From: Candidatus Heimdallarchaeota archaeon
GTDB taxonomy: Archaea; Asgardarchaeota; Heimdallarchaeia; Heimdallarchaeales; Kariarchaeaceae
DNA length: 26,574 bases
Assembly: GCA_030149205.1 (NCBI GenBank)
Contig: JASBSB010000011.1
Span: forward strand, 1-26,574
Reading direction: 5' to 3'
This document shows, one piece after another, positions 1 to 17,547 of this stretch (within the stretch, counting starts at the first letter, position 1; each line of letters opens with the position of its first letter). The position numbers and the translations under genes were made by a program. The notes beneath the pieces are model-generated. The model saw only the letters and a program-made list of their open reading frames with translations, made no database searches and was not told the origin of the DNA.

Positions 1-515
1 CCAAACGAGGCATTAAACTGCCCTTTTTTGTTGCAATCGTGCTAGAACCCTTTTAGGGATTGAAACTTATTCTTTCCAAACGAGGCATTAAACTGCCCTT
101 TTTTGTTGCAATCGTGCTAGAACCCTTTTAGGGATTGAAACTTTATGTGTATATGAACTATTAAGATAGTTGTTAATCTGTTGCAATCGTGCTAGAACCC
201 TTTTAGGGATTGAAACTATCAACTTGCTTTGATATTTTTGGCTCTTGAAAGGAGGTTGCAATCGTGCTAGAACCCTTTTAGGGATTGAAACAACCAGAGA
301 TAACAAACAGAAAAGAAACAATAACTGCGTTGCAATCGTGCTAGAACCCTTTTAGGGATTGAAACTATTTTTCTTGTCCCTCGCTATTTCCTCGTTCATG
401 GTCGTTGTAATCGTGCTAGAACCCTTTTAGGGATTGAAACGATTTTGAGCCTCGAATTTTTCTGTATCCTCATCTAATGTTGCAATCGTGCTAGAACCCT
501 TTTAGGGATTGAAAC
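1..515 (+). CRISPR. CRISPR array (continues left of window); 37-bp repeat GTTGCAATCGTGCTAGAACCCTTTTAGGGATTGAAAC
   Basis: Repeats at 30-66, 105-141, 180-216, 255-291, 329-365, 404-440 (C5>T) and 479-515; spacers are 37-38 bp. A CCCT-TTT-AGGG hairpin is followed by ATTGAAAC, the typical 8-nt Cas6 5' handle, which implies + strand transcription with the leader outside the window to the left. Confidence 0.99.
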
Positions 516-533
516 ATTACCATATATGAGAAC

Positions 534-818
534 CTAAGTAGTAGATGTAATATATTTTCTTAATCCATCATAGTGTTCAAATTGGATCCAGGCATACTTC
601 TGTGATTTCCCCTTTGAAAACATTATTGAAATATCTGGTTCTTCTGGCCCGTAATGTGCTAAATTTTCTATTCCATCGTAATAATCTAAAAAAAGTGACA
701 GATCATCAATTATAACTTCTCTTGGTGGTTCAGACCAATTTAATTTCTCCCTTAAGTATTTTTTAGCAGCCTCGACAATCTGTTCTTCAGCATATTCTTC
801 AAGTAACCTATTTCTCAT
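534..818 (-). CDS. Small hypothetical protein, paralog A (about 94 aa, starts MRNRLLEEY)
   Basis: ORF track gives 534..842. The start is revised to ATG 818 because homology with 1980..2282 begins at MRNRLLE and a TATA-like box is centred about 26 nt upstream. Confidence 0.85.
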   Translation of the reverse strand: MRNRLLEEYAEEQIVEAAKKYLREKLNWSEPPREVIIDDLSLFLDYYDGIENLAHYGPEEPDISIMFSKGKSQKYAWIQFEHYDGLRKYITSTT

Positions 819-840
819 AAACATAATATTCTTCACACCC

Positions 841-860
841 AATATAATTGTTTCGCCCCC
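841..860 (-). promoter_or_regulatory. Archaeal BRE-TATA promoter of paralog A
   Basis: Minus strand reads GGGGGCGAAACAATTATATT; the last C of CGAAAC (850) is 32 nt from ATG 818. Confidence 0.65.
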
Positions 861-965
861 TGATTTTTTTGGTCAAAGAGTGTGGACCATAACCATATTT
901 TTGATCACTTTGAGAGTATACGAAGACTCATAACAGGTGTATATTTCAAAACTTCAAATAATTTG

Positions 966-1232
966 TCAAAGAAAGTTTAAAAGTAATTCTGGAGAATAAA
1001 TATTCACCACAGCAATATCTCCATTTTTTGTTTCACTGTACGCAAACTCCTCTCCATCAGGAAAAATGTATTGCTCCATCCCACGTCCGTTACTTTTTCC
1101 AAAAATCAAAAGAATATTTAGGTCTCCAATCCTAATTTCCTTCAACTCTGGGATGTCTCCGAAAGTCTCTCGAAGCATTTTTAACGCAGCAATACTTATC
1201 TGCCTGTTTTTCAATTTCAAGATACTTGACAC
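966..1232 (-). CDS. Small hypothetical protein, paralog B (88 aa, GTG start), distant member of the A family
   Basis: Gapless 13/34 identity to paralog A (QI..AA.K.LRE...E..I.DL...L), similar C-terminal hydrophobic pattern, same upstream motif. Confidence 0.75.
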   Translation of the reverse strand: MSSILKLKNRQISIAALKMLRETFGDIPELKEIRIGDLNILLIFGKSNGRGMEQYIFPDGEEFAYSETKNGDIAVVNIYSPELLLNFL

Positions 1233-1254
1233 AAATAAATTATCTTTAATCTGT

Positions 1255-1274
1255 CATATAACTGTTTCGACCAT
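1255..1274 (-). promoter_or_regulatory. Archaeal BRE-TATA promoter of paralog B
   Basis: Minus strand reads ATGGTCGAAACAGTTATATG; the last C of CGAAAC (1264) is 32 nt from GTG 1232. Confidence 0.65.
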
Positions 1275-1291
1275 CAGATATTTTTGTTTGA

Positions 1292-1564
1292 AAAACGGGA
1301 AGGAAACTTGCTACAAATACCATCAGAACATTAGTGAAAAAGTATGCTGCTAGTGCAGAGGTAAAGGCAAGCGGACACAAAACAGAGGTCACTCCTGTAA
1401 CTCTCCGTCACAGCTACGCCACTCATTTTACGGGCCTTGGAGTATCACCAATTGTCTTAGGTGAATTGATGGGTAATCCAACAGCAGTAAATAGGTACGC
1501 CCACCCAACTAAAGAGGCAAAACAAAGAGCTGCAAGGCTCATGGAGCCCACACAAAATGACTAA
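1292..1564 (+). pseudogene. C-terminal remnant of a tyrosine recombinase (XerC/D-like integrase)
   Basis: The frame of ORF 1334..1564 is open back to 1292: KTGRKLATNTIRTLVKKYA...VTPVTLRHSYATHF..LG...IVLGELMGN...NRYAH, matching box II (LRHS, LG[H], catalytic Y). An in-frame TGA lies at 1289-1291, no N-terminal half is present, and the HxxR His and GH His are substituted. Confidence 0.8.
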
Positions 1565-1997
1565 AAAAATTCGCAAAATAGGGGTTGGTTCTCAGAAAAA
1601 CCATATTTATAGAAAAATAATCGATAGAAAATTGAAACCTAAAAGAGATCAGCATCCAACAGTTGAATTCAGAATAAATATTGAATATCAAGGAGTCAAA
1701 AAAATTAAAGAGCTTGCTGAATTAGAACGAGTTACAATCAGTAGAAAAACACTTGAGAAACTATCAATGAAAAAAGGGCATTTATCTGTAAATGAAATAA
1801 GAGATGTACTTAAAGACCCAGACGGAATTTATTATAAACAAAATGGAAAGGAGGAAGTTTGGTTTTTTGTCAATGAGATGTCCAATACCAAGAAAGTGGT
1901 CGTAGTGATAGAACGAATGAATAAAAAACATAGGATAAGCACGGCTCACATATTAAAAAACAAATTTTTAAGCAAAAGATTAAGTGATTGGAATTGA
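1557..1997 (+). CDS. Putative BECR-fold (RelE/DUF4258/PBECR-like) nuclease or toxin, 146 aa
   Basis: Pattern ...KKGHLSVNEIRDVLKDPDGIYY...VWFFV...KKVVVVIE...RISTAHIL resembles the H-helix, P-x-x-hydrophobic, beta-meander and TA[HY] layout of BECR RNases. It overlaps the integrase remnant by 8 nt. By-eye call only. Confidence 0.5.
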   Translation: MTKKIRKIGVGSQKNHIYRKIIDRKLKPKRDQHPTVEFRINIEYQGVKKIKELAELERVTISRKTLEKLSMKKGHLSVNEIRDVLKDPDGIYYKQNGKEEVWFFVNEMSNTKKVVVVIERMNKKHRISTAHILKNKFLSKRLSDWN

Positions 1998-2282
1998 TTT
2001 GGGGGAAATAAACCTTTTAAGTCCATCATACCTGTCAAACTCAACCCAACAAAATCTTTTTTTGTTTCCTCTGACCCATACCAATTCAATCCCTTCCTCA
2101 TCTAATCCACCATCTACAACATCTTCTCCATCCCGTTCATAGATGAACAATGCAGAATCGGTGTCAATAAGGATATCAATGGGGATATCATTTAAATTTA
2201 GCTTTAATTTGAGGAATTTTTTAGCTGCTTCTATCACTTGATCCTCAGAGTAATTTTCCAATAAACGGTTCCTCATGATCAT
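1980..2282 (-). CDS. Small hypothetical protein, paralog A' (100 aa)
   Basis: 19/27 identity to paralog A at the N-terminus, plus a shared C-terminal W..F..YDGL..[YF]I motif. Confidence 0.85.
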   Translation of the reverse strand: MIMRNRLLENYSEDQVIEAAKKFLKLKLNLNDIPIDILIDTDSALFIYERDGEDVVDGGLDEEGIELVWVRGNKKRFCWVEFDRYDGLKRFISPKSIPIT

Positions 2283-2304
2283 AATTAATACTTCTATGTT
2301 CTCC

Positions 2305-2324
2305 TAATTAATTGTTTCGACCCT
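2305..2324 (-). promoter_or_regulatory. Archaeal BRE-TATA promoter of paralog A'
   Basis: Minus strand reads GAGGGTCGAAACAATTAATT; the last C of CGAAAC (2314) is 32 nt from ATG 2282. Confidence 0.65.
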
Positions 2325-2402
2325 CAATTATTTCTTAAGAATAGTATAGCTCATAAACACATTCTGTATTTTTGAGAGAGTATGTGCAGTATTCTACATT
2401 CC

Positions 2403-2513
2403 GTTTCAATATTGTTAGAACCCTTTTAGGGATCGAAGAAACTCGTAAAATTTCCCTTTATTCAATACTGTTCTTGGTTGGAACCAAGTTAGAACCTCTG
2501 CAAAAATTGATAC
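2403..2513 (+). CRISPR. Degenerate repeat-spacer-repeat mini-array
   Basis: 2403-2439 matches the array repeat at 30/37 with the hairpin intact; 2477-2513 matches at 24/37 with the hairpin broken. Both alignments are ungapped, and the copies are separated by a 37-bp spacer (2440-2476). Confidence 0.85.
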
Positions 2514-2535
2514 TCATAAGAATTGAAAAAATAAA

Positions 2536-3921
2536 TCAGAAGATATAGGAGGTGTAGTATATTTTACAGGTTGATCCTGGATATTTTATTCCCAGGGCAT
2601 ACTGGTGGCTTGAGTTTAAGATTTCTGTGGAGGTGATTTGAATCTGAGGTGGTGAGGACGGATTATATGGGAATTTAAACCACCTACCTGTCAAATGAAC
2701 ATCAACGTTATCTACAGTCAAGGAAATGTTGGTTAAGCACGCTAGCGGTAAAATTATATTGTTTTCAATCTGAATAGGGATGAGTGTATTAAATAACACA
2801 ACAGATAGTCCTGTAACATTCCAGGGAAAATCATAAAGTATTTCTCCGCTTAATACATTCTGGTTAAGTTTCTGGTTCACAAAATAATTTCCACTCTTTG
2901 CGGGGGAGTTAATGTAGTGTGTCTCATTAAATGCAATCAAATGCAGGCTGAGGCTGACTATTAGAAACAGGAGCAAGAAAAGTCTCAATCCAAAATATAT
3001 CCGGTTTAAGTTAAACTGAGGCCATCTTGATACTATCCCTCCTAAAATAATCCCTCCAGTTAACAAAAGGAGAATATTGAGGGGATAAGTAAGATTCTCT
3101 ATTCCTCGATTTATTGAGACTGTAAGATACACTGGCATGAGAAAGATTGTCACAGCACCCAAAACAAAGGTAAGAATTAGTTTTGTTTTAGCTCTGGTTG
3201 ATTTGTGGTTTAGACACCCTAACACAACAAGGTAAAAGCTGGCAAATATCAAAAATCCAAAGCCAAGGAGCTCAAAAACCGGTATAAATTTATGAGGTTC
3301 AAGTGGATAAAACCGTATAATAAGTATTCCTGTGTACACTAGCATAAAATCAATTATTAGGTCAACCAGAGACAATCTATGCACATACTTTTTCTTTAGC
3401 AATAAAAAGCTCTCACCAAAAATCACTGGGATCAGTATTAAAAATGAGATTAATGTAAGCTGCAAATAAATATTAGATAAGGGGATATACAACACAGTTG
3501 GGTAATCAAAGGTTAGAATAGCAAAAATTATAACAACATCTACCTCTAAAACAAAAATCCTAAAATAGTACATGGCTAACAAAATCAGTGCAAGACGGGA
3601 AAAATAGGGTGTGATCTTCCTGGGTTCATCTTTGTAATAAGATATAAGCACCCATAGCAGAAAAAGTAAAGTTGGTAAGAGAAGTATGCCAAAGTTGATT
3701 GATACCTGATCATTGACGATCTGGTAATCCTTGATAATGTATCCATTGATACGGTTTTCTTTGACATAGACAAGTCTGTATCTGAATCTCCAGAATATTG
3801 AGAAAATGATCAAGGAGACTAATGTGGAAATAAGACCTAACTGCTTTGATTTCTGTCTAATAAAACCTCTCTCCATGACCCCAAATAAAGAGCAGTTTTT
3901 TAAAGAAGGTGATATTTTCAC
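2536..3921 (-). CDS. Polytopic membrane protein (461 aa) with a C-terminal soluble domain
   Basis: Many hydrophobic segments; the C-terminal approx. 125 aa are hydrophilic and beta-rich with NxS/T sequons and two Cys. Confidence 0.8.
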   Translation of the reverse strand: MKISPSLKNCSLFGVMERGFIRQKSKQLGLISTLVSLIIFSIFWRFRYRLVYVKENRINGYIIKDYQIVNDQVSINFGILLLPTLLFLLWVLISYYKDEPRKITPYFSRLALILLAMYYFRIFVLEVDVVIIFAILTFDYPTVLYIPLSNIYLQLTLISFLILIPVIFGESFLLLKKKYVHRLSLVDLIIDFMLVYTGILIIRFYPLEPHKFIPVFELLGFGFLIFASFYLVVLGCLNHKSTRAKTKLILTFVLGAVTIFLMPVYLTVSINRGIENLTYPLNILLLLTGGIILGGIVSRWPQFNLNRIYFGLRLFLLLFLIVSLSLHLIAFNETHYINSPAKSGNYFVNQKLNQNVLSGEILYDFPWNVTGLSVVLFNTLIPIQIENNIILPLACLTNISLTVDNVDVHLTGRWFKFPYNPSSPPQIQITSTEILNSSHQYALGIKYPGSTCKIYYTSYIF

Positions 3922-4099
3922 ACAATTTCACACTGCAAAAAAACATATAAGTTCAAAATTAAATTAGTGTTGAAAATTTATTTGTTAACAATTCCGAAAA
4001 GAGTCAACAATTGAAATTGTTATGTAGGTCAGAATTTTCGACAACTCATACACATAATGATATCAAAATAAATTTAAGCCATCTATTTATAGTTGCAAA

Positions 4100-4534
4100 A
4101 TGAGCGACAAGGCAGAACGACCAAAAATTTATTCTCTTGAGCCCGTCTTACAGGTTAACAATTTACCAGAGACCCTGAGGTATTATGAGGAGACCCTCTG
4201 CTTCCACATCGACTGGGTCTGGCCAGATGATGACAAGCGAGACACAGCTGATCATGCTTCAGTCTCTTTGGGGCAGCAAGAGGGTGAGGAAGAGGAGCAT
4301 TCACACCATCACTCACATATACAGCTGAGCCAGGCAGATAAGACCCCTGTGGCAAACTCTGGCTGGCTGTACTTTAGGGTTGAGTCAGACATAGATGAAC
4401 TTTATGAGTTATTTAAAAGGGGAGGAGCAAGCATAAGCTCTGAGATAAACAGCTATCCCTGGGGTATGAGAGAATTTGATATTCGTGAGAACAATGGTCA
4501 TGTCTTCCGCTTTGGAAAGCCTGTGGAACAATAG
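4100..4534 (+). CDS. VOC/glyoxalase (bleomycin-resistance-like) family protein
   Basis: PVLQVNNLPETLRYYEETLCF at the N-terminus and LYFRVESDIDELYE...YPWGMREFDIRENNGHVFRFG at the C-terminus; acidic/His-rich insertion EEEEHSHHHSH. Confidence 0.9.
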   Translation: MSDKAERPKIYSLEPVLQVNNLPETLRYYEETLCFHIDWVWPDDDKRDTADHASVSLGQQEGEEEEHSHHHSHIQLSQADKTPVANSGWLYFRVESDIDELYELFKRGGASISSEINSYPWGMREFDIRENNGHVFRFGKPVEQ

Positions 4535-4577
4535 TCACAACACCAAAAATTAAAAGTCACATATTCATCCTGCAAGT

Positions 4578-5567
4578 ATGAAGGTTGTTTTTCAATATCA
4601 GGGTCTGATATCTGACGAATACAAGCGAACATTGGAGGAAAACCTTCCAGAAGATGTTCAGTTGGTCTTTATGGAGAACAACGAAGAGGAGGGGCTGCTC
4701 AGAGAGATAACCGACGCAGAGGTGTTTGTGGGTTACAAGCTTACTAAACCACTCATTGATACAGCCAAAAAGCTACGACACATCCAGATTCCTTGGACTG
4801 GTTTTAATGATCTTGGTGCTGAGTTCCTAGAGGGAAGGGATGATATCACTGTCTCCAACTCTCATGCCAACTCTCAGGCAATTGCTGAGCATGCGGTCGC
4901 ACTTCTTCTCGCTGCTTCCAAGCTTCTTACTCAGAGAGATCGAGGGATGAGATCTGGTGACTGGTCCACAAGGTATGAGGATGTCAACTCTGTATGGCTC
5001 ACTGATCGAACCACTGCAATTATTGGATATGGTGCGATTGGGAAAAAGGTTGCAAGAATGATGAAGCATGGATTCAACAACAGAATCCTGGCTATAAAGC
5101 GTACACCTCTCAAATCTGATGATCTTGCGGAGTTTGTGGGTGGTATGGAGGATCTAGACTCAGTGTTACCTCAGGCAGACTTTGTTGTTGTCGCTGTTCC
5201 ACTTACAAACGAGACACGGAGGTTAATCACAGCCAAACAATTTGAGCTGATGCGTGAAAATACTGTTATTGTGAATATCGCCAGAGGTGAGGTTATAGAT
5301 GAGGAGGCATTATATAGTGCACTCAAGGAGAGAAAGATTCATTCAGCTGGTATCGATGTCTGGTATAACTATCCAAGGGGAGAACAGCGAGTTGTAAAGC
5401 AAAATTACCCATTTGAGGAGCTTGATAATATTGTCATGACCCCTCACAGTGCGTTCAAGGTTGAAAAGAGAGAGAGGGTGTTTCTCTCTGACATTGTTAC
5501 CAACCTTCAAAGGTTGTATGAGGGAAAGGAACCAATAAACAGGGTGTATTTGGAACTTGGGTATTAG
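4578..5567 (+). CDS. D-isomer-specific 2-hydroxyacid dehydrogenase (PGDH-like)
   Basis: AIAEHAVALLLA, Rossmann motif IIGYGAIG, NIARGEVIDEEAL, GIDVW and catalytic MTPH. Confidence 0.95.
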   Translation: MKVVFQYQGLISDEYKRTLEENLPEDVQLVFMENNEEEGLLREITDAEVFVGYKLTKPLIDTAKKLRHIQIPWTGFNDLGAEFLEGRDDITVSNSHANSQAIAEHAVALLLAASKLLTQRDRGMRSGDWSTRYEDVNSVWLTDRTTAIIGYGAIGKKVARMMKHGFNNRILAIKRTPLKSDDLAEFVGGMEDLDSVLPQADFVVVAVPLTNETRRLITAKQFELMRENTVIVNIARGEVIDEEALYSALKERKIHSAGIDVWYNYPRGEQRVVKQNYPFEELDNIVMTPHSAFKVEKRERVFLSDIVTNLQRLYEGKEPINRVYLELGY

Positions 5568-5589
5568 AAAAAAATACAATTACATAATA

Positions 5590-6414
5590 TTACACCAATG
5601 TAATAAATTGAGATTGAAAGAGATGGTTAATAATATCAAATCTTCCTAAACCCACGGTTCTTCCTCTCCCCACCCCTGTAAAAAATCCTAATAAAAATAG
5701 GCTATTTATGAAATCAACATATTTTTCATGTACTCCATAGGTTACTTGGCCTACCCAGCCTTGGTGTATTATCTTTCTATTTATTCTAACCGTGCTCAAC
5801 CTTCCTTTAGCTTTTTCAATCCAAATTTTATTTTGAAGATCGATCACTTCTAAAGAATTCTCGTTAGTCCATTTTTTCCATAATGAAATTAGGTTGGTTA
5901 TTAAATTCGTAGGTTCTGGCCATTTGAAGTACTGCTTCCCTTGAGTAAAAGACAAAGGTGATTTAAAGTTTAATTGAAAGATTGAGTTTTCAATTATTGA
6001 GTCAGATAGATCGAATGATTTCATATTAATTTGATATGGTGAGAACTTTAGACCATAGGCACTTACAATTTGAATAGATTGTAAAAACATAGGAAACAAC
6101 CTAATTAATTCTAAGTTTGAGGTTATTACATCGAAAAATACCATTTCACCTTTCACAAGTGATTTTGATTTTAAATAATCTATTGGGGAGTTTTTACAGG
6201 TATTGCATTTCCATCTGTAAATTTGTGATATTGATAAATCTAATACTCCTCTTGACATTCGAAAAGAATCAAAAAGGCTTTTGCTTTTCTCTCTCAACAG
6301 GTCAAAAAATAACTTGTTTGCTATTTGACCAGAAAAATATGGAGTTCTTTTGGAACTCTGAGCAATTAGAAACACCCTGAAAAATTTTATATTTATGAAA
6401 TAGCTTCTACTCAT
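5590..6414 (-). CDS. cas6: CRISPR-associated endoribonuclease Cas6
   Basis: C-terminal G-rich loop GFFTGVGRGRTVGLGRF; FKSPLSF..G....WPEP..L..NL...W motif; ATGA overlap with cas3. Confidence 0.9.
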   Translation of the reverse strand: MSRSYFINIKFFRVFLIAQSSKRTPYFSGQIANKLFFDLLREKSKSLFDSFRMSRGVLDLSISQIYRWKCNTCKNSPIDYLKSKSLVKGEMVFFDVITSNLELIRLFPMFLQSIQIVSAYGLKFSPYQINMKSFDLSDSIIENSIFQLNFKSPLSFTQGKQYFKWPEPTNLITNLISLWKKWTNENSLEVIDLQNKIWIEKAKGRLSTVRINRKIIHQGWVGQVTYGVHEKYVDFINSLFLLGFFTGVGRGRTVGLGRFDIINHLFQSQFITLV

Positions 6415-9035
6415 GTTGCATCAAATTTAGGATTAAACCCTCCTAAAGGGGAATACTGGGTGAATTCGCTTTCCTTAACCAAGTATAACTCTACACCAGG
6501 GTATTTTAATTTATTATAGTTGGTGATTTGATTCAATAACTTGCTTGAAATTCCTATCATATATAAATTCAATAATTTCAATGAAGATTTTTTGGTTATA
6601 TCAAATTTATTGAGTAAATTATCGGGTAAAATTGCAAGACTTTTGTCGTAAGTCTCTTCAATTAATTTAAAATCTGAAAAGAGCTTACCCAAATTCGAGG
6701 TATCTAGTAAATCTGTTAACTCTGAAGTAATTTTCCTCATTTTTATTTTTTCATAAAATTTAGGTATCAATGACCTGAGTTTAATTTCATCCAAGTTATT
6801 TTCCTTTAATAAGAGCTCGTTTGTTATTTCTAAGGTGACTAAATCATATAAGTTCGCATATGGTTTGCCTTCATCATTCACAAGGTTGAATAAAGTTATA
6901 ACTCCTCTATCATTTCGATTATTTCTGTTACATCTTCCTGCAACTTGAATTATTGAATCTAATGGTGCCATATCTCTGTAAACTCTAGAAAAATCTAAAT
7001 CAATTCCTGCTTCAATCACCTGTGTTGTCACTAAAATCACTGGTTTGTTCTTGGCTAAAAGGTTTTCAACTTCCTGTATAGTGTTCTTTCGATCTATAGG
7101 TCTTACCCAGGTTGAGAGTAGAAAAGTTGAATAATTTTTGAATTCAGAATCAACAAAATCATAAACATCTCTGCAAGACTTTTTTGTATTTAAAACAATT
7201 AAAATTTGGTTGTTTTTATTCACCTCAATATTGTTTTTGAAGTATTCTATTAAATCTTCCATACCTATTTCACTGAGGTCTTCAAGGAAATTTATCTCAT
7301 ATCTATTGATTTGATCTAATATATCCCTTGGTAAATTTAATGTTGGTCTCACAATTGATTTCACTGAATTTACCAAGGGGCGAGGATTGGTGGCAGAACC
7401 AATAATAAAGTCAATATTCAGATATTCGATCATAAAATTAATTGTTTTTGATAATATTTTCCAATATTTTGGAGGCAAAGATTGAACCTCATCTAAAATA
7501 ATTATCGAACCAATTAATCTATGAAATCTTAAAATTGCCTTTTTCTTGCCTGAAAAAATTAGATTCAAGAAAGATACAAATGTTGTAACAATGAATTGGT
7601 TGTGCCATAATCTTGTTGAATAAGATGCTTTTCCAACAATTATTTCATCTACACTTTCAACAAAATTCTCTCCTTTAACAATAAATTGAGGTAGATCAGA
7701 GAAGCTATGATGGATAGTTAAAAGCTCCTTTTTGCCCAATTTATTTAGACTCAGGATTTCATCAACTACATTTCCAACCTGATCAGTTATAGAAATAAAG
7801 GGTAAAGCATAAATTATTCTTCGAAATTTTTTGGTTTGAATAGGATGTTTGTTTGCTAATCTGACAGCTAAATTTATCATGGCATATGTTTTTGCAGAAC
7901 CTGTTGGTGCTTCAATAATGTAGGCTGATGGTTTATCTGATAAATCATTAGAATCTAACACATTGAACAAAATATTTCTTAACCTGTTTAACTGACTAAG
8001 AGTTGTATTTCCGTTTGGTTTGAATTTTAAATTTATTGTTTTTTTAACAGTATCTAAAGGAATTTTTCCAGTGTACGACCAATCAAATTCATCGGAATGG
8101 GAATCTGTGTTTTGGATAAATGTTCTGGCATCCCACTCATCTAGGTCACATAGCATAGAATGAAGAGTTAGATAAAAAGGTAAAAATGATGATAAATTTT
8201 TTGCATTATTCCAATCATCCGTAATATCCTCTATTAAGTCTTCAAACTCATCTGATACTATTTCTTTCTTTATTGGTTTCAAATAATTATCCAAATTACT
8301 AACTTTATATCTGACTATTTCTCCAAGTTGATCTAATGATTTTTTAATAATGTCTTTTCGATCTCCAGTGAATTTTTCACTAAAATCACAAGAAATCAAA
8401 ATCAAATCGTCTATATATCCAATTTGTTTATTTTGTCCTGGAATTCCTATTTCAAACTTTTTGCAAAATACATGTGTCTTCATTAGTGATATTGTTGAAA
8501 GTGTATCTACCTTTGCCTCTTTTAAATATTCTAACAAATTATGTTTTATTAGAGGAGAATGATGGCTGGCAATGGAATAAGGGATAAGAATCTTGAATAA
8601 TGAGATAAAGTTATCTGTAAGGTCTCCTAACGAGTTCTTTATTTCATTTTTTTCAATAGCAAAATAATTTTCTAACAGCAAATATGAGAAAATAGAGCTA
8701 GTTTTTGTATGATAACTTAGTGGGTTTATTGTGGCTTTAACCTTATTTTGTCTTATTTTGTATTGAAACACTGGTGAAATTTTTCCAAAATCATGACAAA
8801 CCACTAAAATTTTCATAAGGTCTTCAACAATATATTCTGATATTTTTAATTTTGTTGAATCTGGGGCTTCTCCAAAACTTCTGAGAGAATCTTTTGCAAG
8901 TTCAAAAAACGGTAATCTAAATTTTAAATCAAATAATTTTTTTCTTAAGTTCGATAAATGATGTTCTAGTGGTTGCCCGGGTCTAGCTAATAACCGATTA
9001 TAAGATGAAAATTTTTCTTCAATTGATTTCGTCAT
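6411..9035 (-). CDS. cas3: Cas3 HD nuclease-helicase
   Basis: LEHHL, CHDFGK, ASHH and LCDLD (HD domain); APTGSAKT, LDEVQ, GSAT, TQVIEAGIDLDF and QVAGRCNR (helicase motifs). Confidence 0.97.
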   Translation of the reverse strand: MTKSIEEKFSSYNRLLARPGQPLEHHLSNLRKKLFDLKFRLPFFELAKDSLRSFGEAPDSTKLKISEYIVEDLMKILVVCHDFGKISPVFQYKIRQNKVKATINPLSYHTKTSSIFSYLLLENYFAIEKNEIKNSLGDLTDNFISLFKILIPYSIASHHSPLIKHNLLEYLKEAKVDTLSTISLMKTHVFCKKFEIGIPGQNKQIGYIDDLILISCDFSEKFTGDRKDIIKKSLDQLGEIVRYKVSNLDNYLKPIKKEIVSDEFEDLIEDITDDWNNAKNLSSFLPFYLTLHSMLCDLDEWDARTFIQNTDSHSDEFDWSYTGKIPLDTVKKTINLKFKPNGNTTLSQLNRLRNILFNVLDSNDLSDKPSAYIIEAPTGSAKTYAMINLAVRLANKHPIQTKKFRRIIYALPFISITDQVGNVVDEILSLNKLGKKELLTIHHSFSDLPQFIVKGENFVESVDEIIVGKASYSTRLWHNQFIVTTFVSFLNLIFSGKKKAILRFHRLIGSIIILDEVQSLPPKYWKILSKTINFMIEYLNIDFIIGSATNPRPLVNSVKSIVRPTLNLPRDILDQINRYEINFLEDLSEIGMEDLIEYFKNNIEVNKNNQILIVLNTKKSCRDVYDFVDSEFKNYSTFLLSTWVRPIDRKNTIQEVENLLAKNKPVILVTTQVIEAGIDLDFSRVYRDMAPLDSIIQVAGRCNRNNRNDRGVITLFNLVNDEGKPYANLYDLVTLEITNELLLKENNLDEIKLRSLIPKFYEKIKMRKITSELTDLLDTSNLGKLFSDFKLIEETYDKSLAILPDNLLNKFDITKKSSLKLLNLYMIGISSKLLNQITNYNKLKYPGVELYLVKESEFTQYSPLGGFNPKFDAT

Positions 9036-9045
9036 ACCTTGCTTC

Positions 9046-9900
9046 CTAAAGAAATGTAATTGTTTTATTTAACTTTTTAATTTCTACCCCTTTTTCTGAT
9101 TCTAGTTTAGCCTTAAATTCATCCTCTGGTCTGACCAAAAATACAGATTCAAGTCTTTTTGCTATGATATTCCATAATGACAATTTAGTCTTATCATCTG
9201 CTTTTTTCATTGCCATAGGTATATTCAACAAGGTTGGTGTGCTTAAGAGAGAAAGAGGTATTTCCTTCATAAATTCTGAGTCAATTGCAGAGTAAGGGAC
9301 AATTGTATTTACTTTATAAATTATATCTGTACTGATTTTTGTCCCCTCAAACTCTCCTACATATTCTACCCTCGCTAATAAGTTTGCATGACCTAAATAT
9401 GGTGGATAATAATACTTTTTATTTTCTAACCTATCCTTGAGCTTCGTATATATTTCTAAATTTTCGGTGTGAATATACAACTGATAACTTGCATCTTCAA
9501 TCAGATCGAGTTTTGTTGGGGCATTCATGCCTCTGCTATATTTAGCTCCTCTGTACCTACGTGCAAAATCCTTGGCATTTAATTCAATTAACTCTGCACC
9601 AAATGGGTCTTCAGGTATCAAAATTTTGGAATTTTGGATTGTGATGGTTTCCTTAACTCTAATATAATTAACTTTAAGAGAATTTCTCTTAATCGGATTT
9701 AAAATTTCCACGGCAATATTTAGTGAGCTTAACGGATTTTTTACATCCCAATATTGATTTCTAGGCTCTCCTAAAATCGCACCTAATAACCCAAGTACTG
9801 CGGTACGTGGTGGAAAAGGGTAACTCAAGTTTTCTCTTGTTGTTTCGGGGATTCTAAAATGAGCGAAATCTCCTTCTAACTTTACAACCAAAACCTTCAT
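9046..9900 (-). CDS. cas5: Cas5, type I-B (Cas5h)
   Basis: GDFAHFRIPET...SYPFPPRTAVLGLLGAILG; YYPPYLGHA. Confidence 0.95.
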   Translation of the reverse strand: MKVLVVKLEGDFAHFRIPETTRENLSYPFPPRTAVLGLLGAILGEPRNQYWDVKNPLSSLNIAVEILNPIKRNSLKVNYIRVKETITIQNSKILIPEDPFGAELIELNAKDFARRYRGAKYSRGMNAPTKLDLIEDASYQLYIHTENLEIYTKLKDRLENKKYYYPPYLGHANLLARVEYVGEFEGTKISTDIIYKVNTIVPYSAIDSEFMKEIPLSLLSTPTLLNIPMAMKKADDKTKLSLWNIIAKRLESVFLVRPEDEFKAKLESEKGVEIKKLNKTITFL

Positions 9901-9909
9901 ATGCTATCC

Positions 9910-10845
9910 TCATATATCTTCTAAAGCAAAATCACTTAAGAAATCTTTCAAGCTGTTACTTGATTCTTTTCCATCTGTAAATGTTAATCCTCTATCCTCT
10001 TTAATCTCGATGAAATCAATTTGATCTGAGAATTTTTTTATCCTTTCGAGAAATCCACTGATATTTACTCTAGCATCTTCTGATCCTTTTAAATTTAACT
10101 CATTTTCAAGAACAAACCCTTTATCTAAATCTCCTATTTGGAAATCATTTTCTTTTGAAGCTACAGAAAGTAGTAATCTTGGAAGATGGTTAGTTTTACT
10201 ACGAGTGTTAATTCTTTTGGTACCATTCCATAAGCCATCATAGACATATTTTAGGTCGTCCTCAGTAAATCCAACCTCTTTAGCATTATGTTCACAAGCA
10301 ATCCCATGAAACTTAATTAAAGAGTAATCAAGAACATGGAATTCTCCAATTGACCCCTGTCCCTTTCCTTCCTCGGAGGCAATAGTTGAAGAAATGGTAA
10401 AAGAATTGATATTTGGTTTGTTCATTGATCTTGCAATTGAAAATTGAACTGGGCCTGTTAAGGCGACATTAGCATCTTTAACAGTACCAACAACACCAAA
10501 AGACCTGACATCAATAAATTTTTCAGGCAATGATTTTCGGATAAGTTCACGAGTATCTCCTTTCACCACTCCTATTTCTAACTCTTGTTTAATTAATTCT
10601 TTCATGGAGAGGACATTTCCTTTGTTTTCTCCTTCATCAGATTTAACAACTCTTCGAATGAGCACCTTGTTGTTTTCAGTTTCCCTTGTAAGCCAATAAT
10701 CTCTTATTGTGCGTTTTAACCTTAGATCAGTGACTATATTGTAATCATTCTCATCCATTCTAGGTCTGTTTTCATCATCGGGATCTCCATTAGGATTAGA
10801 GTCCCGTACATCATAAATAAATACTATTTCTCTTCTTTGTTTCAT
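9910..10845 (-). CDS. cas7: Cas7, type I-B (Csh2)
   Basis: SNPNGDPDDENRPRMD, VTDLRLKRTIRDY, FIDVRSFG, TGPVQFS and RSKTNHLPRLLL. Confidence 0.96.
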   Translation of the reverse strand: MKQRREIVFIYDVRDSNPNGDPDDENRPRMDENDYNIVTDLRLKRTIRDYWLTRETENNKVLIRRVVKSDEGENKGNVLSMKELIKQELEIGVVKGDTRELIRKSLPEKFIDVRSFGVVGTVKDANVALTGPVQFSIARSMNKPNINSFTISSTIASEEGKGQGSIGEFHVLDYSLIKFHGIACEHNAKEVGFTEDDLKYVYDGLWNGTKRINTRSKTNHLPRLLLSVASKENDFQIGDLDKGFVLENELNLKGSEDARVNISGFLERIKKFSDQIDFIEIKEDRGLTFTDGKESSNSLKDFLSDFALEDI

Positions 10846-11354
10846 ATTTGTTCCTCCATATCTTCCGTTTCAGAAGGTTCATTTTCTTCTTCTTCAGATG
10901 GATTTAGTTGTGCCAATGAGCTATCAAATCCCATTTGGAATGAAATACCAAGATCATATTGATTCTCTTTAAACTCATTGATATCTTTTAATAAGTCAGA
11001 AATTCTGTTTCTAAGATCAGATTTCATAACGTACGTACTTTTTTCTTTAGAAGCAATTTTTTGTAATACTGAGTTACAATTGTTAATCATAATTTTGAGT
11101 TTCGTTTCATCTATTCGTCTAGTTAAGTTAGGAAGGTTCTTTATTAGACTAGATGTTTTAAGCATTTTTTTCTGAAGAAAAGAACTGATAGAATAATATC
11201 TTCCAACAAGATAGCTTATCTGTCTTTCTGGCTTATTATTGAAATATTCTGTCTTAAAGATTTCATCAAGAAATCTGTTATCCTCTATTAATTTCTGTTT
11301 GAAATTTTCTTTTTTATTGATTTTTTCTAGATTTTCCTCTGACATATTGTTCAC
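10842..11354 (-). CDS. cas11: Stand-alone Cas11b small subunit (equivalent to the Cas8b C-terminal domain); true start may be ATG 11345
   Basis: Helical 170-aa protein between cas8b and cas7. SYLVGRYYSISSFLQKK and ISFQMGF match the FLxG..L...Q and F..G motifs of the Csh1/TM1802 C-terminus. GTGA overlap with cas8b. Confidence 0.75.
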   Translation of the reverse strand: MNNMSEENLEKINKKENFKQKLIEDNRFLDEIFKTEYFNNKPERQISYLVGRYYSISSFLQKKMLKTSSLIKNLPNLTRRIDETKLKIMINNCNSVLQKIASKEKSTYVMKSDLRNRISDLLKDINEFKENQYDLGISFQMGFDSSLAQLNPSEEEENEPSETEDMEEQI

Positions 11355-12880
11355 TCCCTAAATAAATTTAACTGGCACATTAGTTCATATAAAACTAAAA
11401 ATGTGTTGAGCATTCTACGATATTCATACTTTTTGATGAGAGTTTGTTTTTTCAAACCACCGTTATAAACTAAAAACGGATCTTTTAGGTTTGAAATTGC
11501 ATTTTTTGAGAATTCCCTATTTGAGACCTTTTTACCTGTAAGTAATGAATTTCGAATTAGATCTGCTTCTTTTATTGAAAAAAGAGAATATAGATCTTTA
11601 AATTCAAATCTATACACATTTTTATTTAATAAAAATTCTTTCTGATTGAACTTATTTTCAATAGATTCTAGAACTTCTAAAAATTTTTGTAGTTTATTGA
11701 CATTTACAAAAGTTGTATCCATAAAGACAATTTTTGTATTGCTAACTCCTGTTCGCTCATTTGTATAAAATAAGTCTAAATACGAAATTCCTCTTTTCGC
11801 GAATTCTTTTAATAAGGTACGTTCATCAATTTTTGAGTTGGTAGTTATATCTTCCTTGTTTTTCTTAGTTGTTTTCACAATTTTATTTTTAGCAGACCTT
11901 ACTATTTTTTTATTAACTCTTTCTAAATTTTCCTTTAAATTTTCAGCTTCATTTCTTTTGGTTGTTGTTTGTGATTGAATGTTCTTTAATTGAATAATTC
12001 TCGAAATAATTTCATTTAATTTTTGCAGATCAAAGACTAAAGGAAGTAGGATGTGATTTACAAATAAATTATTTCTGGAGTTTATTGGCTTAATATAACT
12101 TGGGAACGACAATTCGTTAACCATCAGATTTAAACCTTGTTGAATATCATTTTGGCAGTCGTAACACAAATTGAGTTGATGTGTTTTTTTTGCGTCAAAT
12201 CCCATTACAAAATTGTTTAAATCAAGGGAAAAGAATTCAAAAACAGCTTTGTTAATTTTTGAAACAGGTATGAGGTTAACAAACTTTCCACAGGCATAGC
12301 AAATTCCATTTATTGAATCTTTATCCTTAGATACTTTCGCTGACGATAAGTATACTTTTATGAATTCATCAATTTCTCCAGGATACTTAAAACTTTCACC
12401 ATCATGCACTTTGAAAACTAATAGTGTTGGACATTTACTCTTATTTACTTTGTTTTTTTTCTTGTCAAAAAAATTATCCTTAATCTTTAGCTTTATTTCA
12501 TCTTCGACACTATTTTTATTTTGTTCTAGCCATTCGATTAGTTGAGGATAAATTACTAACTCATCCTTATTTTCACTTTCCAACACAGAAGCTGGGAATT
12601 TTGCAAAATTGATTATTCTTCCTGTTTTGTTTAGTTCATCAGGTTTTATGTTTAAAACAGGGGATAAGTTACTGCTATTTCCCCCTTGGATTCCCCTTAG
12701 GTAGGTAATTTCTTTATTTTCGCTATATTCCTCAATATTTACTTGAAAGGTATTTTTGTTTGGGTCGACTTCAATGACAAACAAATGATCTTTCTTGTAT
12801 TTACTTTGTTCTTTTATTAATGAAACTAAAATATCATCCGAATTGATTTCACCGATTTTTTTGACAAGTGATAATAACAA
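11351..12880 (-). CDS. cas8b: Cas8b large subunit (Csh1/TM1802-like) lacking the C-terminal Cas11 part
   Basis: First gene of the cas7/cas5 operon; CYACG and LCYDCQ zinc-site motifs, FFSLD, HILLPLV; TTG start with upstream GGGAG. Confidence 0.85.
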   Translation of the reverse strand: MLLSLVKKIGEINSDDILVSLIKEQSKYKKDHLFVIEVDPNKNTFQVNIEEYSENKEITYLRGIQGGNSSNLSPVLNIKPDELNKTGRIINFAKFPASVLESENKDELVIYPQLIEWLEQNKNSVEDEIKLKIKDNFFDKKKNKVNKSKCPTLLVFKVHDGESFKYPGEIDEFIKVYLSSAKVSKDKDSINGICYACGKFVNLIPVSKINKAVFEFFSLDLNNFVMGFDAKKTHQLNLCYDCQNDIQQGLNLMVNELSFPSYIKPINSRNNLFVNHILLPLVFDLQKLNEIISRIIQLKNIQSQTTTKRNEAENLKENLERVNKKIVRSAKNKIVKTTKKNKEDITTNSKIDERTLLKEFAKRGISYLDLFYTNERTGVSNTKIVFMDTTFVNVNKLQKFLEVLESIENKFNQKEFLLNKNVYRFEFKDLYSLFSIKEADLIRNSLLTGKKVSNREFSKNAISNLKDPFLVYNGGLKKQTLIKKYEYRRMLNTFLVLYELMCQLNLFRE

Positions 12881-13647: not shown

Positions 13648-14868
13648 CTATTCCTTTACCCACCTCTGGATCTCAGCCTCCAGGTTACTCAGATCTTTTC
13701 TTCCGAACACCTTGACAGATCTATCCACTAGGTAATCTCTGACCTCGTTCTCCAATGCACTTTTGTTATCCGAGAGACATACCAACCCAAAGTATGTCTT
13801 CCAGCCAGCAATCTGTGTGGAGCGGATCATGACCTCAAATATCTTTTTCTTCAGCTCAGATTTTCCACCTCTCTTTGAATCTGAGACTGTGGAGACAGAA
13901 ACCACATACACCCGGTTTTTAACCAAAAACACCATGTCTAGCTCAAATTCAGGATCTTTGCTAGAGATGTTGGTTTTGAAGTCATCAATCACTCCTAACC
14001 TTGTAAGGTTTGAAAGTGCATCTGCTACGCGACTCTCGAGCCAGAACCCATCAAACCATTCTACAAGCTTCTTAATCCTCCTGAACTGAAGCTGTTTGGT
14101 TAGATCTGCGAGTCTGACCTTTTGGTTATTTGGATGTATCAGTTGCTTTAGCTCAGGGATATCAGCAAATGAAATTTCAATTCCATGTAACTCGGTCTCA
14201 GGTTTAACTTTCCTGTTTTTTTTCTTGTAAGCCTTTCTCAACTGTTTAGATTTGAAATTGAGCCACCTCTTATCATTCTCTTGTTTGCTTAGCAACTTGA
14301 TTAATGCATCGACCACCTTTCTTTGCTCATTTTTCAAAGGGACAGTTGGATCAAACTTTGTGTCCTGATGAAGTGATATAACCTCAGAAACTGTGAATGG
14401 AAGATTGATCTCCTCTTCATGAGTTTCAAGGCTTGGTACCTTAGTGATGATGAGACTCCAGGGTTTTCCCCGTATGTAAGAGATGACAAAATCTGCGTTT
14501 ATTCTCTGTAGATAAAAGAGTGTTGCCATTAACATTGGCTTGGTACCACCGGTGGAATCAAAATGGACATAAGGTTTTTGTGGGTGATTAAATACCGGAT
14601 CAAGTGACATTTTGAGTTCTTTCAGAATCTCCCCTTGATCAAATGGTGGGACTTCAATTCCAAGGATCTGTTGTTCCTTTCCCCTCTGATCTCTCTTCTC
14701 CTGAAAATTTCTTTTCCATTGTAATATCCTTGAAAAGATCGGCTCATTAGCCTTGGTGTACAGAATAAAGACATGGGGGGTGTCAGAGAAGAGTTTGATA
14801 ACTGTGACAGGAACAATTGGATTGGATCCTAAAAGGGTGATGAGTACACTTGGTTTCTTAAGTGTCAA
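13648..14868 (-). CDS. CARF + DUF1887 (PD-(D/E)xK-like) nuclease, Card1/Can2-like
   Basis: N-terminal CARF motifs LITLLGSNP and FDSTGGTKPM; C-terminal FDGFWLE...ELDMVF....VYVVSVST...KKKIFE...RSTQIAG...GLVC. Confidence 0.8.
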   Translation of the reverse strand: MTLKKPSVLITLLGSNPIVPVTVIKLFSDTPHVFILYTKANEPIFSRILQWKRNFQEKRDQRGKEQQILGIEVPPFDQGEILKELKMSLDPVFNHPQKPYVHFDSTGGTKPMLMATLFYLQRINADFVISYIRGKPWSLIITKVPSLETHEEEINLPFTVSEVISLHQDTKFDPTVPLKNEQRKVVDALIKLLSKQENDKRWLNFKSKQLRKAYKKKNRKVKPETELHGIEISFADIPELKQLIHPNNQKVRLADLTKQLQFRRIKKLVEWFDGFWLESRVADALSNLTRLGVIDDFKTNISSKDPEFELDMVFLVKNRVYVVSVSTVSDSKRGGKSELKKKIFEVMIRSTQIAGWKTYFGLVCLSDNKSALENEVRDYLVDRSVKVFGRKDLSNLEAEIQRWVKE

Positions 14869-14961
14869 TTGTAAATGATTATTCGCTGTATGGTTATATA
14901 GTTGAGGACTTCTAGATAGTTATTTCAATATTCCTTAGATGAAACCTCTCAAATACCTGTG

Positions 14962-15621
14962 TTAATTTTCCATTAGAGCAACCAGAACCTTTCCTGTATC
15001 TGTCAGAGAGACGAGCCTTTCCTTTCCCTGATAGTCAGATTCAATCAGGTCCTGGTTCTCAAATTCTTTGATATATCTTGTCATTGATTGAACAGTTCTA
15101 AGCCCAGTTTCCTTTTTGAGTAGGGAGAGGGAAATGGGTCTGTTAATCTCTCCCAATGTTTTAATAATTTTCAGGCGGGTGTCTCTGAAATCTCTGGTAG
15201 ACACTCGGGGCATAGGTACCCAAATAAGCTCTCCTATACCATCGTCCTCACGAAGTTTTTTGAGATAAAAAACAGGACTTGCGGTCATATATCCAACGAG
15301 AAGAAGTGCTGAGGTCATTATTTTTGTCCCTCCAGTCATATTTAGTGTGATCTTCAGCTTGGGGTCACTCTGGTATTTTTTACGAACCTTCTTGATTCCT
15401 TCAATCATGTTAAGAAGGCAGTTCATAAGATCAAATTTATCTATAATATGATTGTAGACCTTAATACGTAGTGGGTCATTCTCATAAAACTTCTTTATGG
15501 ATGCCAGTTCTGGAGAGTCATCAGAATCAGTGAACAGATGGATTTCATCCATCGGAACATGCCTAAGGGCATTGAGCACCACATCTGGTGACTTCCCTAG
15601 ACTGGCAAATTGTACTCTCAT
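14962..15621 (-). CDS. csa3: Csa3-like CARF-wHTH transcriptional regulator
   Basis: CARF motifs FASLG and LNMTGGTKIM; C-terminal winged helix SLSLLKKETG...QSMTRYIKEFENQDLIE...GKERLVSLTDTG. Confidence 0.85.
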   Translation of the reverse strand: MRVQFASLGKSPDVVLNALRHVPMDEIHLFTDSDDSPELASIKKFYENDPLRIKVYNHIIDKFDLMNCLLNMIEGIKKVRKKYQSDPKLKITLNMTGGTKIMTSALLLVGYMTASPVFYLKKLREDDGIGELIWVPMPRVSTRDFRDTRLKIIKTLGEINRPISLSLLKKETGLRTVQSMTRYIKEFENQDLIESDYQGKERLVSLTDTGKVLVALMEN

Positions 15622-17365: not shown

Positions 17366-17547
17366 ATGAAAATAAACTACCAACCTGTTCATCTGTATAT
17401 GTTCAGAATATAGCTCATTTAAATGACAGCATTCTTTTTTATTTAACAATTTTTCACATTGGAACAAGAAATCTTTTGAACTGTAAGTTTAAATTGGTCT
17501 TAGGATTTATTTTTCCTGAGTATTTGGTAAGGAGGGTGAAAAAATGA
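17362..17547 (+). CDS. 61-aa ORF bridging the kinase and helicase genes; may not be a true protein gene
   Basis: ATGA start/stop overlaps at both ends (17362-17365 and 17544-17547); no recognisable motif. Confidence 0.3.
   Translation: MNENKLPTCSSVYVQNIAHLNDSILFYLTIFHIGTRNLLNCKFKLVLGFIFPEYLVRRVKK

Follow-up and report, generated by a model that had tools for sequence, protein, structure and literature searches.

This study analysed the entire 26.6-kb contig JASBSB010000011.1 (contig C11, hereafter the window) of a Candidatus Heimdallarchaeota archaeon whose genome (G000) comprises 3.3 Mb with 35% GC. The window opens with a type I-B CRISPR array, which is followed by a gene island and then by a stub of two degenerate repeats, psiR1 and psiR2, enclosing a single spacer. 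A decayed integrative element probably stranded the old end of the array at this site, leaving the stub as a relic and not as the gene of a regulatory RNA. On present evidence, the event is a fresh example of a known and fairly ordinary kind and introduces no new regulatory system. The features concerned are listed by window position and strand.

30-515, plus strand: portion of the live array on its trailer side, with 7 repeats of 37 nucleotides (nt) and 6 full spacers, running off the contig start
516-533, no strand: left junction, 18 nt from the last perfect repeat to the stop codon of orfA
534-842, minus strand: orfA, 102 amino acids (aa), acidic, isoelectric point (pI) 5.0; orfE paralogue with no adjoining orfD
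843-965, minus strand: orfA upstream region, homologous to the upstream region of the element's orfE
966-1232, minus strand: orfB, 88 aa, acidic, pI 5.05; distant member of the orfE family
1268-1564, plus strand: tyrosine-integrase pseudogene, a 95-codon C-terminal remnant with an in-frame stop after codon 7
1557-1997, plus strand: orfD, 146 aa, basic, pI 10.2; nuclease-like protein of predicted BECR (Barnase-EndoU-colicin E5/D-RelE) fold, candidate toxin
1980-2282, minus strand: orfE, 100 aa, acidic, pI 4.7; candidate antitoxin or immunity partner
2283-2402, minus strand: orfE upstream region, with a motif resembling a B recognition element (BRE) and TATA box at 2310-2322; homology to the element's intergenic region up to about 2402-2410
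2403-2439, plus strand: psiR1, degenerate repeat, 30/37 to the array repeat and 31/37 to the repeat on contig C4
2440-2476, plus strand: mini-spacer of 37 nt between psiR1 and psiR2, no target found
2477-2513, plus strand: psiR2, degenerate repeat, 24/37 (13 mismatches), hairpin lost

The array repeat (GTTGCAATCGTGCTAGAACCCTTTTAGGGATTGAAAC, 37 nt) occurred seven times between 30 and 515, with one change (C5>T) in the copy at 404-440, and the last perfect repeat ended at 515, exactly as the original prediction had placed it. The same repeat was found on contig C8 (9-1981, minus strand), where 27 further units at the contig start were followed by a 190-nt leader and cas4. The position of the leader and cas4 at the far end of this array, hereafter array A, indicates that the plus strand is the one transcribed in the window and that 515 lies on the trailer side. 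At the other end of the window array, the first spacer-repeat unit was exactly duplicated (1-68 is identical to 76-143), and this duplication may have caused the assembly break at the contig start.

The two degenerate copies that had been reported downstream, at 2403-2439 with 30/37 matches and at 2477-2513 with 24/37, were reproduced exactly in position, strand, and count, together with the 37-nt spacer between them. Folding likewise bore out that the hairpin was kept in psiR1 (CCCU-UUU-AGGG, -5.4 kcal/mol) and lost in psiR2, the predicted fold of which was 0 kcal/mol, i.e., unstructured. The mismatches of psiR1 to array A fell at positions 4, 9, 10, 13, 32, 36, and 37, and its central 21 nt were identical to the repeat on C4. 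We scored the repeat without gaps at 6.6 million positions on both strands of the 3.3-Mb genome. The scan revealed eight sites with 24/37 matches, two with 25, one with 27, and one with 30, and several of these were pseudo-repeats on C4 and C12. Sites with at least 24/37 matches are therefore so rare that psiR2 stands at spacer distance from psiR1 far beyond chance; a same-strand 24/37 copy at that distance from a 30/37 copy is expected at approximately 1e-5.

The psiR1-spacer-psiR2 series showed the features of a trailer end, namely the strand of array A, spacer-length spacing, and a degeneracy that increased away from the leader. The predicted rise of degeneracy toward the trailer was thus observed, with 30/37 followed by 24/37 in the direction away from the live array. 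The stub is not contiguous with array A, as 1,887 nt of element-derived DNA lie between them, and we infer that the two were formerly contiguous. In a same-genus genome, a normal trailer contained repeats with just one or two changes; the stub has therefore decayed far more than a terminal repeat left in place, as expected once it had been cut off. A C13>T change had also been noted in both degenerate copies. The T at position 13 was present in both, but it is not a shared new mutation, because T is the normal base at this position in sister array B (C8:9225-12399, 43 repeats) and in the near-perfect C4 repeat. The region after psiR2 was homologous to neither the array B trailer nor that of the C4 mini-array. 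A near-palindrome, CTTGGTTGGAACCAAG, with 7-bp arms and a 2-nt centre lay across the junction of the mini-spacer and psiR2 (2473-2488). It owes its existence to four of the 13 psiR2 mismatches and could be a product of chance or a protein-binding or recombination site.

The proposal that a mobile element or gene island was inserted near the old trailer end was supported by homology of the island to an integrase-orfD-orfE module that occurs elsewhere with a full-length integrase. All five reading frames previously described within 516-2402 exist, but the frame at 1334-1564 is merely the open part of the integrase pseudogene at 1268-1564. Window positions 1268-1552 aligned with residues 196-290 of the 290-aa integrase on contig C22 of G007 ('Candidatus Heimdallarchaeota archaeon M2_metabat1_scaf2bin.168') at 64% identity. 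Residues 1-195 left no trace in the island, and no integrase homology was found to the left of 1268. The match of the pseudogene to the Pfam family Phage_integrase (3.6e-4) was below the cut-off. The possibility that orfB was an antisense frame of the decayed integrase was ruled out, as the integrase homology ends at 1268.

The remaining genes form a partner family with shared promoters. The proteins of orfA and orfE were 42% identical with no detectable DNA similarity, which indicates that both are real genes under selection. The orfB protein is a distant relative (19% identity); it matched the profile of the family, which was built in part from orfB itself, at 5.4e-28. The BRE/TATA-like motif GGGCGAAACAATTATAT (plus strand 846-858, AATTGTTTCGCCC) was located approximately 25 nt ahead of the orfA start codon. 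The sequence GG(G/T)CGAAACA(A/G)TTAT occurred at this distance before the starts of orfA, orfB, and orfE on their own strands (plus-strand coordinates 846-858, 1260-1272, and 2310-2322) and was conserved in homologues, suggesting that it is the BRE/TATA promoter of leaderless genes. The orfE gene is convergent with orfD, with an 18-nt overlap. The island proteins had no match in NCBIfam or PADLOC, and Rfam gave no match at E <= 1 over window positions 1-6000.

The orfE family comprised 11 members among 5.8 billion proteins, and homologues of orfD were nearly limited to one Heimdallarchaeial family of genomes. On G007:C22 and on the contigs of loci L060 and L061, the integrase-orfD-orfE order was accompanied by further genes and its integrase was complete (290 aa). 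At L031 and on G007 C75 and C271, the same order stood between ftsZ and a DUF2461 gene, and its integrase was truncated. The loci L032-L034 carried the orfD-orfE module with no integrase. This recurrence with a full integrase indicates that the module is the cargo of an integrative element, of which the window contains a decayed copy and two orphan partner genes. Scans of genomes and metagenomes with the orfD profile returned solely the loci already found. Adjacency of orfD and orfE was seen in about six independent loci, the exceptions being an orfD pseudogene on G007:C29 and an orfE with no orfD at L035. A second C-terminal integrase fragment (residues approximately 212-290) was present in the genome of the window at C4:558859-559094 on the minus strand; it contains a frameshift, has neither orfD nor orfE beside it, and sits 5 kb from a pseudo-array on C4.

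On the basis of these findings, an integrative element of a small Heimdallarchaeial family, loaded with a tyrosine integrase, the toxin-like orfD of putative BECR fold, its acidic partner orfE, and further genes, would have entered the trailer part of the array, possibly more than once. Subsequent decay of the element by deletion would have spared an integrase stub, an orfD/orfE pair that is still intact, and two partner-like genes as orphans, with the pair and the orphan genes each left with a short archaeal promoter of its own. The last two repeat units, severed from the transcribed and homogenised array, would have drifted to 30/37 and then 24/37. This order of insertion and decay is a reconstruction from the present arrangement, and entry may have been either integrase-mediated or the result of recombination at short homology with the repeat.

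Several observations weigh against this reading. The island does not finish in an element end on either side, and both junctions lie within sequence homologous to the element: the cut on the left is beside the 3' end of orfA, and that on the right falls in the intergenic region of the element. A one-step insertion is therefore insufficient, and no direct repeats (att sites) other than the CRISPR repeats flank the island. In the absence of a clean insertion structure, later deletions or short-homology recombination with the repeat must be invoked. The left junction lies at most 18 nt and the right junction at most approximately 10 nt from the repeat boundaries, so that almost no spacer is kept; junctions at these boundaries are unexpected under random insertion and deletion. 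On the left, 516-533 retains at most half a spacer and leads directly to the orfA stop codon, where intact modules carry orfD, and part of it may be a vestige of the orfD 3' end. A pre-insertion, uninterrupted array was present in no genome searched. None of 46 further genomes in the order contained the A-type repeat, scanned as a degenerate pattern allowing 3 mismatches at most; a combined pattern for array A, the C4 repeat, and psiR1 returned nothing in JGI metagenome contigs; and the repeat core had no match in viral contigs. Contigs C11 and C8 do not abut, and the continuity of the window array with the C8 array is a join that we infer rather than read from the assembly. Furthermore, the seven mismatches of psiR1 spare a central block of 18-21 nt, which would occur by chance in approximately 0.3-0.5% of cases and could reflect selection on the Cas6 hairpin.

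Given the junctions at repeat boundaries, we also considered the island as a giant 'spacer' acquired by Cas1-Cas2. This explanation was rejected because the island is a mosaic of rearranged element pieces. To our knowledge, no Cas1-Cas2 reaction handles 1.9 kb.

The position of the junctions also bears on a different account of entry, in which the element family recombines with CRISPR repeats through a repeat-like sequence in its orfE-proximal intergenic region. Under this account, psiR1 would be a hybrid junction repeat with its 5' end from the element and the rest from the array, and array trailers would be the usual home of the element, whose toxin/partner pair would hinder deletion of the insertion. 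We consider this account unlikely, although the right junction offers it some support. The homology of 2283-2402 to the element's intergenic region reaches psiR1; the conserved ATTTAAAT/ATTTATAT of the element aligned with the first eight bases of psiR1 (GTTTCAAT), and the base at psiR1 position 4 in this alignment was that of the element. The intergenic motif GATTCTAGTCTA (L031 at approximately 7815-7826, L013 at approximately 1085-1096, and L020) was identical to 12 nt of the repeat type found in genome G002, and a TATA-like region near it resembled the 3' half of that repeat. The first similarity had a p value of approximately 0.005-0.02 per test and was post hoc and weak after multiple testing, and the second reached approximately 0.01 by shuffling and was likewise post hoc. 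The A-type and psiR1 repeats had no significant similarity to the intergenic regions of the element, the weak matches being confined to the G002-type repeat.

Two other copies of the module were located beside CRISPR repeats. At L029/L030, four decayed repeats followed just past the orfE promoter, in the same placement and orientation as in the window. In L029 (ENA ERZ27249683 k141_565586), they occupied 7574-7820 and became more degenerate away from the module, and this repeat type makes up real arrays in two genomes of the same genus, G003 and G002. On G007:C29 (L051), a four-repeat array end (GTTTCAATCCCTAGAAGGGTACAATCGCATCTGCGAC) at 14-272 lay 1.2 kb from a decayed module at 1513-2700 with an intact orfE, an orfD containing stops, and an integrase pseudogene. 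Thus, 2 of approximately 7 loci were near arrays (excluding the window, which was chosen for its array), whereas by rough estimate less than 1% of a genome is that close to an array; the proportion exceeds that of chance placement. However, the sample is tiny and its loci are related, and mobile elements and defence islands cluster in general. The L029 junction is approximately 45-60 nt further from orfE than that of the window, and the two therefore have no common crossover point; the G007:C29 module lies on the leader side of its array, beyond another gene. The intact copies (G007:C22 and L060) carry no mini-array, and no viral contig carries the repeat core. A broader proposal, that the module preferentially lodges in or near array trailers by short-homology recombination while its gene pair blocks deletion of the adjacent array, or that psiR1 has been kept for Cas6 binding, or both, appears decidedly improbable. 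Retention for Cas6 binding is suggested by the untouched central 21 nt and by the ATCGAAG end of psiR1 that is common to the C4 pseudo-array.

The genome contains several other decayed repeat relics, on C4 and C12, in line with the reading of the stub as a relic. Alternatively, the stub could have descended from an older array of its own, or from a terminal unit that had been duplicated, beside the cas operon and never contiguous with array A, and the element remnant would just lie between two arrays. The resemblance of psiR1 to the C4 repeat (31/37, vs 30/37 to array A), its T13 as in array B and C4, its ATCGAAG 3' end, found again in the opening repeat of the mini-array on C4, and the occurrence of isolated relics with leader-like flanks all agree with such an origin. 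The stub nevertheless has the strand and polarity of array A; the region upstream of it (2283-2402) is element sequence and not leader-like sequence, and the gap to the live array consists wholly of element-derived DNA. We therefore regard an independent origin as quite unlikely and retain the reading of a severed array end.

The C4 pseudo-array (C4:552104-554061; L009 4105-6062) comprises a solitary degenerate repeat, a 376-aa secreted-type gene, a leader homologous to that of array A, and three repeats with 27/37, 35/37, and 24/37 matches, the first of which ends in ATCGAAGT, like psiR1. On sequence grounds, this unit would be a better candidate for an RNA resembling a CRISPR RNA (crRNA) than the stub in the window. 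On C12 (L010), two solitary pseudo-repeats with 25/37 matches each were found in inverted orientation at 3237-3273 (plus strand) and 3997-4033 (minus strand). They enclose approximately 720 nt with a 64-aa reading frame, and leader-like sequence lies upstream of the first.

The original prediction had offered, as its second option, that the stub is a retained regulatory RNA of the CreA/CreR type. Here, psiR1 would be cut by Cas6, and the mini-spacer RNA would direct the type I-B Cascade to repress a promoter that it partly matches, possibly that of the toxin-like cargo. The layout agrees with reported cases: two repeat-like units surround a spacer-like unit with no leader (the upstream 120 nt being element sequence), close to a type I-B operon and to toxin/antitoxin-like cargo (PMC8501985; bioRxiv 10.1101/2023.03.03.530964). 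Mini-arrays with toxin-antitoxin cargo have been described, and their distal repeat is often degenerate (bioRxiv 10.1101/2023.03.03.530964), as is psiR2; the psiR1 hairpin is intact with its central 21 nt unchanged. However, the pattern of conservation argues against such a role. The mature RNA of creA genes takes its handles from the final 8 nt of psiR1 and the initial 22 nt of psiR2, which tend to be better kept (PMC8501985). In the window, the would-be 5' handle (the last eight nt of psiR1, ATCGAAGA) retained 5/8 positions and the would-be 3' handle (the first 29 nt of psiR2) retained 17/29 with no hairpin, whereas the parts that would be discarded from the RNA were better kept (25/29 in psiR1; 7/8 in psiR2, whose last eight nt are ATTGATAC). 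The handle-forming parts are thus the worst conserved, the reverse of creA genes.

The spacer of creA also partly matches a promoter next door that is flanked by a protospacer-adjacent motif (PAM) (PMC8501985), and no partly matching adjacent promoter was found for the mini-spacer. A seed scan of the window gave a best run of 10, located in coding sequence, and 30 shuffled spacers gave 7-13. In the genome-wide search for partial matches that had been proposed, the best ungapped and seed matches (26/37, 16/20, and 13/14) were read as the tail of the score distribution, with the shuffled control confined to the window. No seed match of at least 10 bp linked the mini-spacer to the promoters of cas8, cas6, or the cargo, and its 22-nt core was absent from viral contigs. 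When all 77 spacers were compared with the genome by blastn-short, the matches were at chance level only, and no other spacer targeted the island. By reading of the sequence, the plus strand upstream of psiR1 had no convincing TATA box. No small RNA toxin (creT) was identified beside the stub, where a systematic search for a creT-like mini-ORF was not conducted. The stub also lies outside the cas operon, 3 kb from cas6 and separated from it by three unrelated genes. With its repeat conservation reversed, no target, and no psiR2 hairpin, the regulatory option received no support and is very improbable, and the stub is better read as a relic.

We further analyzed orfD and orfE as a toxin-like pair. 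In Pfam, orfD matched PBECR3 (7.5e-5, 23.1 bits; cut-off 30) and PBECR2 (2.4e-4, 21.7 bits; cut-off 27.1), and DUF4258 and BrnT also matched below their cut-offs. Its structure model had a predicted local distance difference test (pLDDT) value of 73.7. In VIA-align, the top match of this model was the CdiA-CT toxin 5i4q_A (Z 6.5, root-mean-square deviation 3.9 A, 87 residues aligned), followed by a Salmonella toxin-antitoxin toxin (7vd7_A; Z 6.4, 3.9 A, 88), BrnT (3u97_A; Z 5.7, 3.2 A, 75), colicin D (5znm_B; Z 5.4, 2.8 A, 80), and a second CdiA-CT (8ey4_A; Z 5.1, 2.4 A, 72). These five best structural matches are all BECR toxins, with every Z under 8, and Foldseek returned nothing at E <= 0.001 for the model against the PDB. 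Atlas clusters with PBECR families scored 0.88 for orfD; the Atlas gave no usable match for orfE. Pfam, the structural matches, and the Atlas concordantly hint that orfD may adopt a BECR-type nuclease fold.

The basic orfD (pI 10.2) contrasts in charge with orfA, orfB, and orfE (pI 4.7-5.05). Complex prediction for orfD and orfE gave a score of 0.43, and the best control gave 0.00. Among solved complexes, 58 of 80 attained this mark, as did 2 of 110 mismatched pairs; both mismatches but no more than 7 of those 80 complexes did so at 0.60 or under. Contacts agreed between prediction runs by at least 89%, and the partner pLDDT was at least 81. The model is thus weakly in favour of binding between orfD and orfE, which may act as a toxin-antitoxin pair. 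Similar to known BECR toxin/partner pairs (PBECR2/3, BrnT-BrnA, RelE-type, CdiA-CT/CdiI, and colicin D), orfD is basic, with approximately 90 core residues in a predicted alpha/beta BECR arrangement, its small acidic partner overlaps it, and the pair stands beside an integrase on a mobile element. Unlike those pairs, orfD has matches under the Pfam cut-offs, Z scores of just 5-6.5, and a basic N-terminal extension of approximately 50 residues; the two genes are convergent and not co-transcribed, and the partner family has no match in Pfam, NCBIfam, or PADLOC.

The arrangement as a whole can be compared with several known systems. In E. coli, CRISPR-I contains insertion sequence (IS) elements and a hok/sok module, and its degenerate terminal repeats have been described as 'anchor' units (PMC3903273). 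As in that locus, mobile DNA and an addiction-type module are combined here with degenerate trailer-end repeats. The insert in the window, however, is a decayed tyrosine-integrase element and not an IS, and its place is within the repeat series, where the decay of the two units that it stranded goes much further than that of a normal terminal repeat. The CreTA system and the two-psiR creA of haloarchaeal type I-B loci (PMC8501985; PMC9458426) share with the stub a leaderless psiR-psiS-psiR structure near a type I-B operon and repeats that diverge differently. They differ from it in that its handle-forming parts are the least conserved, that no partly matching PAM-flanked promoter was found, that it lies outside the cas operon, and that the neighbouring toxin-like gene encodes a protein. 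The regulatory mini-arrays with cargo described by Shmakov et al. (bioRxiv 10.1101/2023.03.03.530964) are likewise composed of two repeats, the distal one degenerate, with toxin-antitoxin-like cargo beside them in a type I locus, at a hotspot of gene shuffling, but the stub lacked the seed match of at least 10 bp to the promoters of cas8, cas6, or the cargo. The pipeline of that study used conservation among related loci as its criterion.

Viruses and plasmids, too, carry mini-CRISPR arrays and solitary repeat units (summarised in bioRxiv 10.1101/2023.03.03.530964), in which one or two host-type repeats are likewise combined with mobile DNA. The present case differs from these, as the intact copies of the element are free of a mini-array, the repeats in the window are decayed, and the repeat core occurs in no viral contig.

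The locus thus provides a worked example of CRISPR array remodelling by mobile DNA in the archaeal group closest to eukaryotes, and it shows how isolated pseudo-repeats, thought to be raw material for regulatory crRNA-like genes, can originate. It also defines a small undescribed module, in which a tyrosine integrase is joined by a toxin-like protein of predicted BECR fold and by an acidic partner that belongs to no assigned family; the members of this module are so far almost wholly within one Heimdallarchaeial family. Which parts of a pseudo-repeat are conserved provides a simple test that separates a decaying stub from a creA-type gene. If true, the association of the module with arrays would be a new interplay of addiction modules and CRISPR arrays.

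The type I-B effector operon of the window (5590-12880, minus strand) comprises cas8b, a 170-aa gene, cas7b, cas5b, cas3, and cas6, and PADLOC identified Cas8b (1.2e-22), Cas7b (1.2e-62), Cas5b (1e-37), and Cas3b (7.6e-128). This is the machinery by which any crRNA of the array A repeat would be used. The 170-aa gene between cas8b and cas7b (10842-11354, minus strand) had no family match, and its position suggests a separate small subunit (Cas11-like). The genes between the stub and cas6 encode an ORFan membrane protein, a glyoxalase-family protein, and a dehydrogenase. The first of these, a polytopic membrane protein of 461 aa (2536-3921, minus strand), follows directly after psiR2, and neither the family nor a set of 5.8 billion proteins contained a homologue of it. 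Within the genus, the closest Cas6 had 34% identity, and the cas genes had no close orthologues; with this distant Cas6 and the ORFan neighbour, the locus could not be compared with relatives by synteny.

Elsewhere in the genome, the adaptation genes are located at C8:2176-9235 (L011), between the long arrays A and B, whose leaders both face them. Past the cas operon, the window carries a defence island at 13648-15621 (minus strand) and 17544-22910 (plus strand). A Csx1-type CARF-PDDEXK protein is encoded there (PADLOC 3.8e-51), together with a CARF-only protein. The island also includes a Mokosh-like MkoA helicase (2.3e-81), after which come a gene of 350 aa and a PLD-domain protein.

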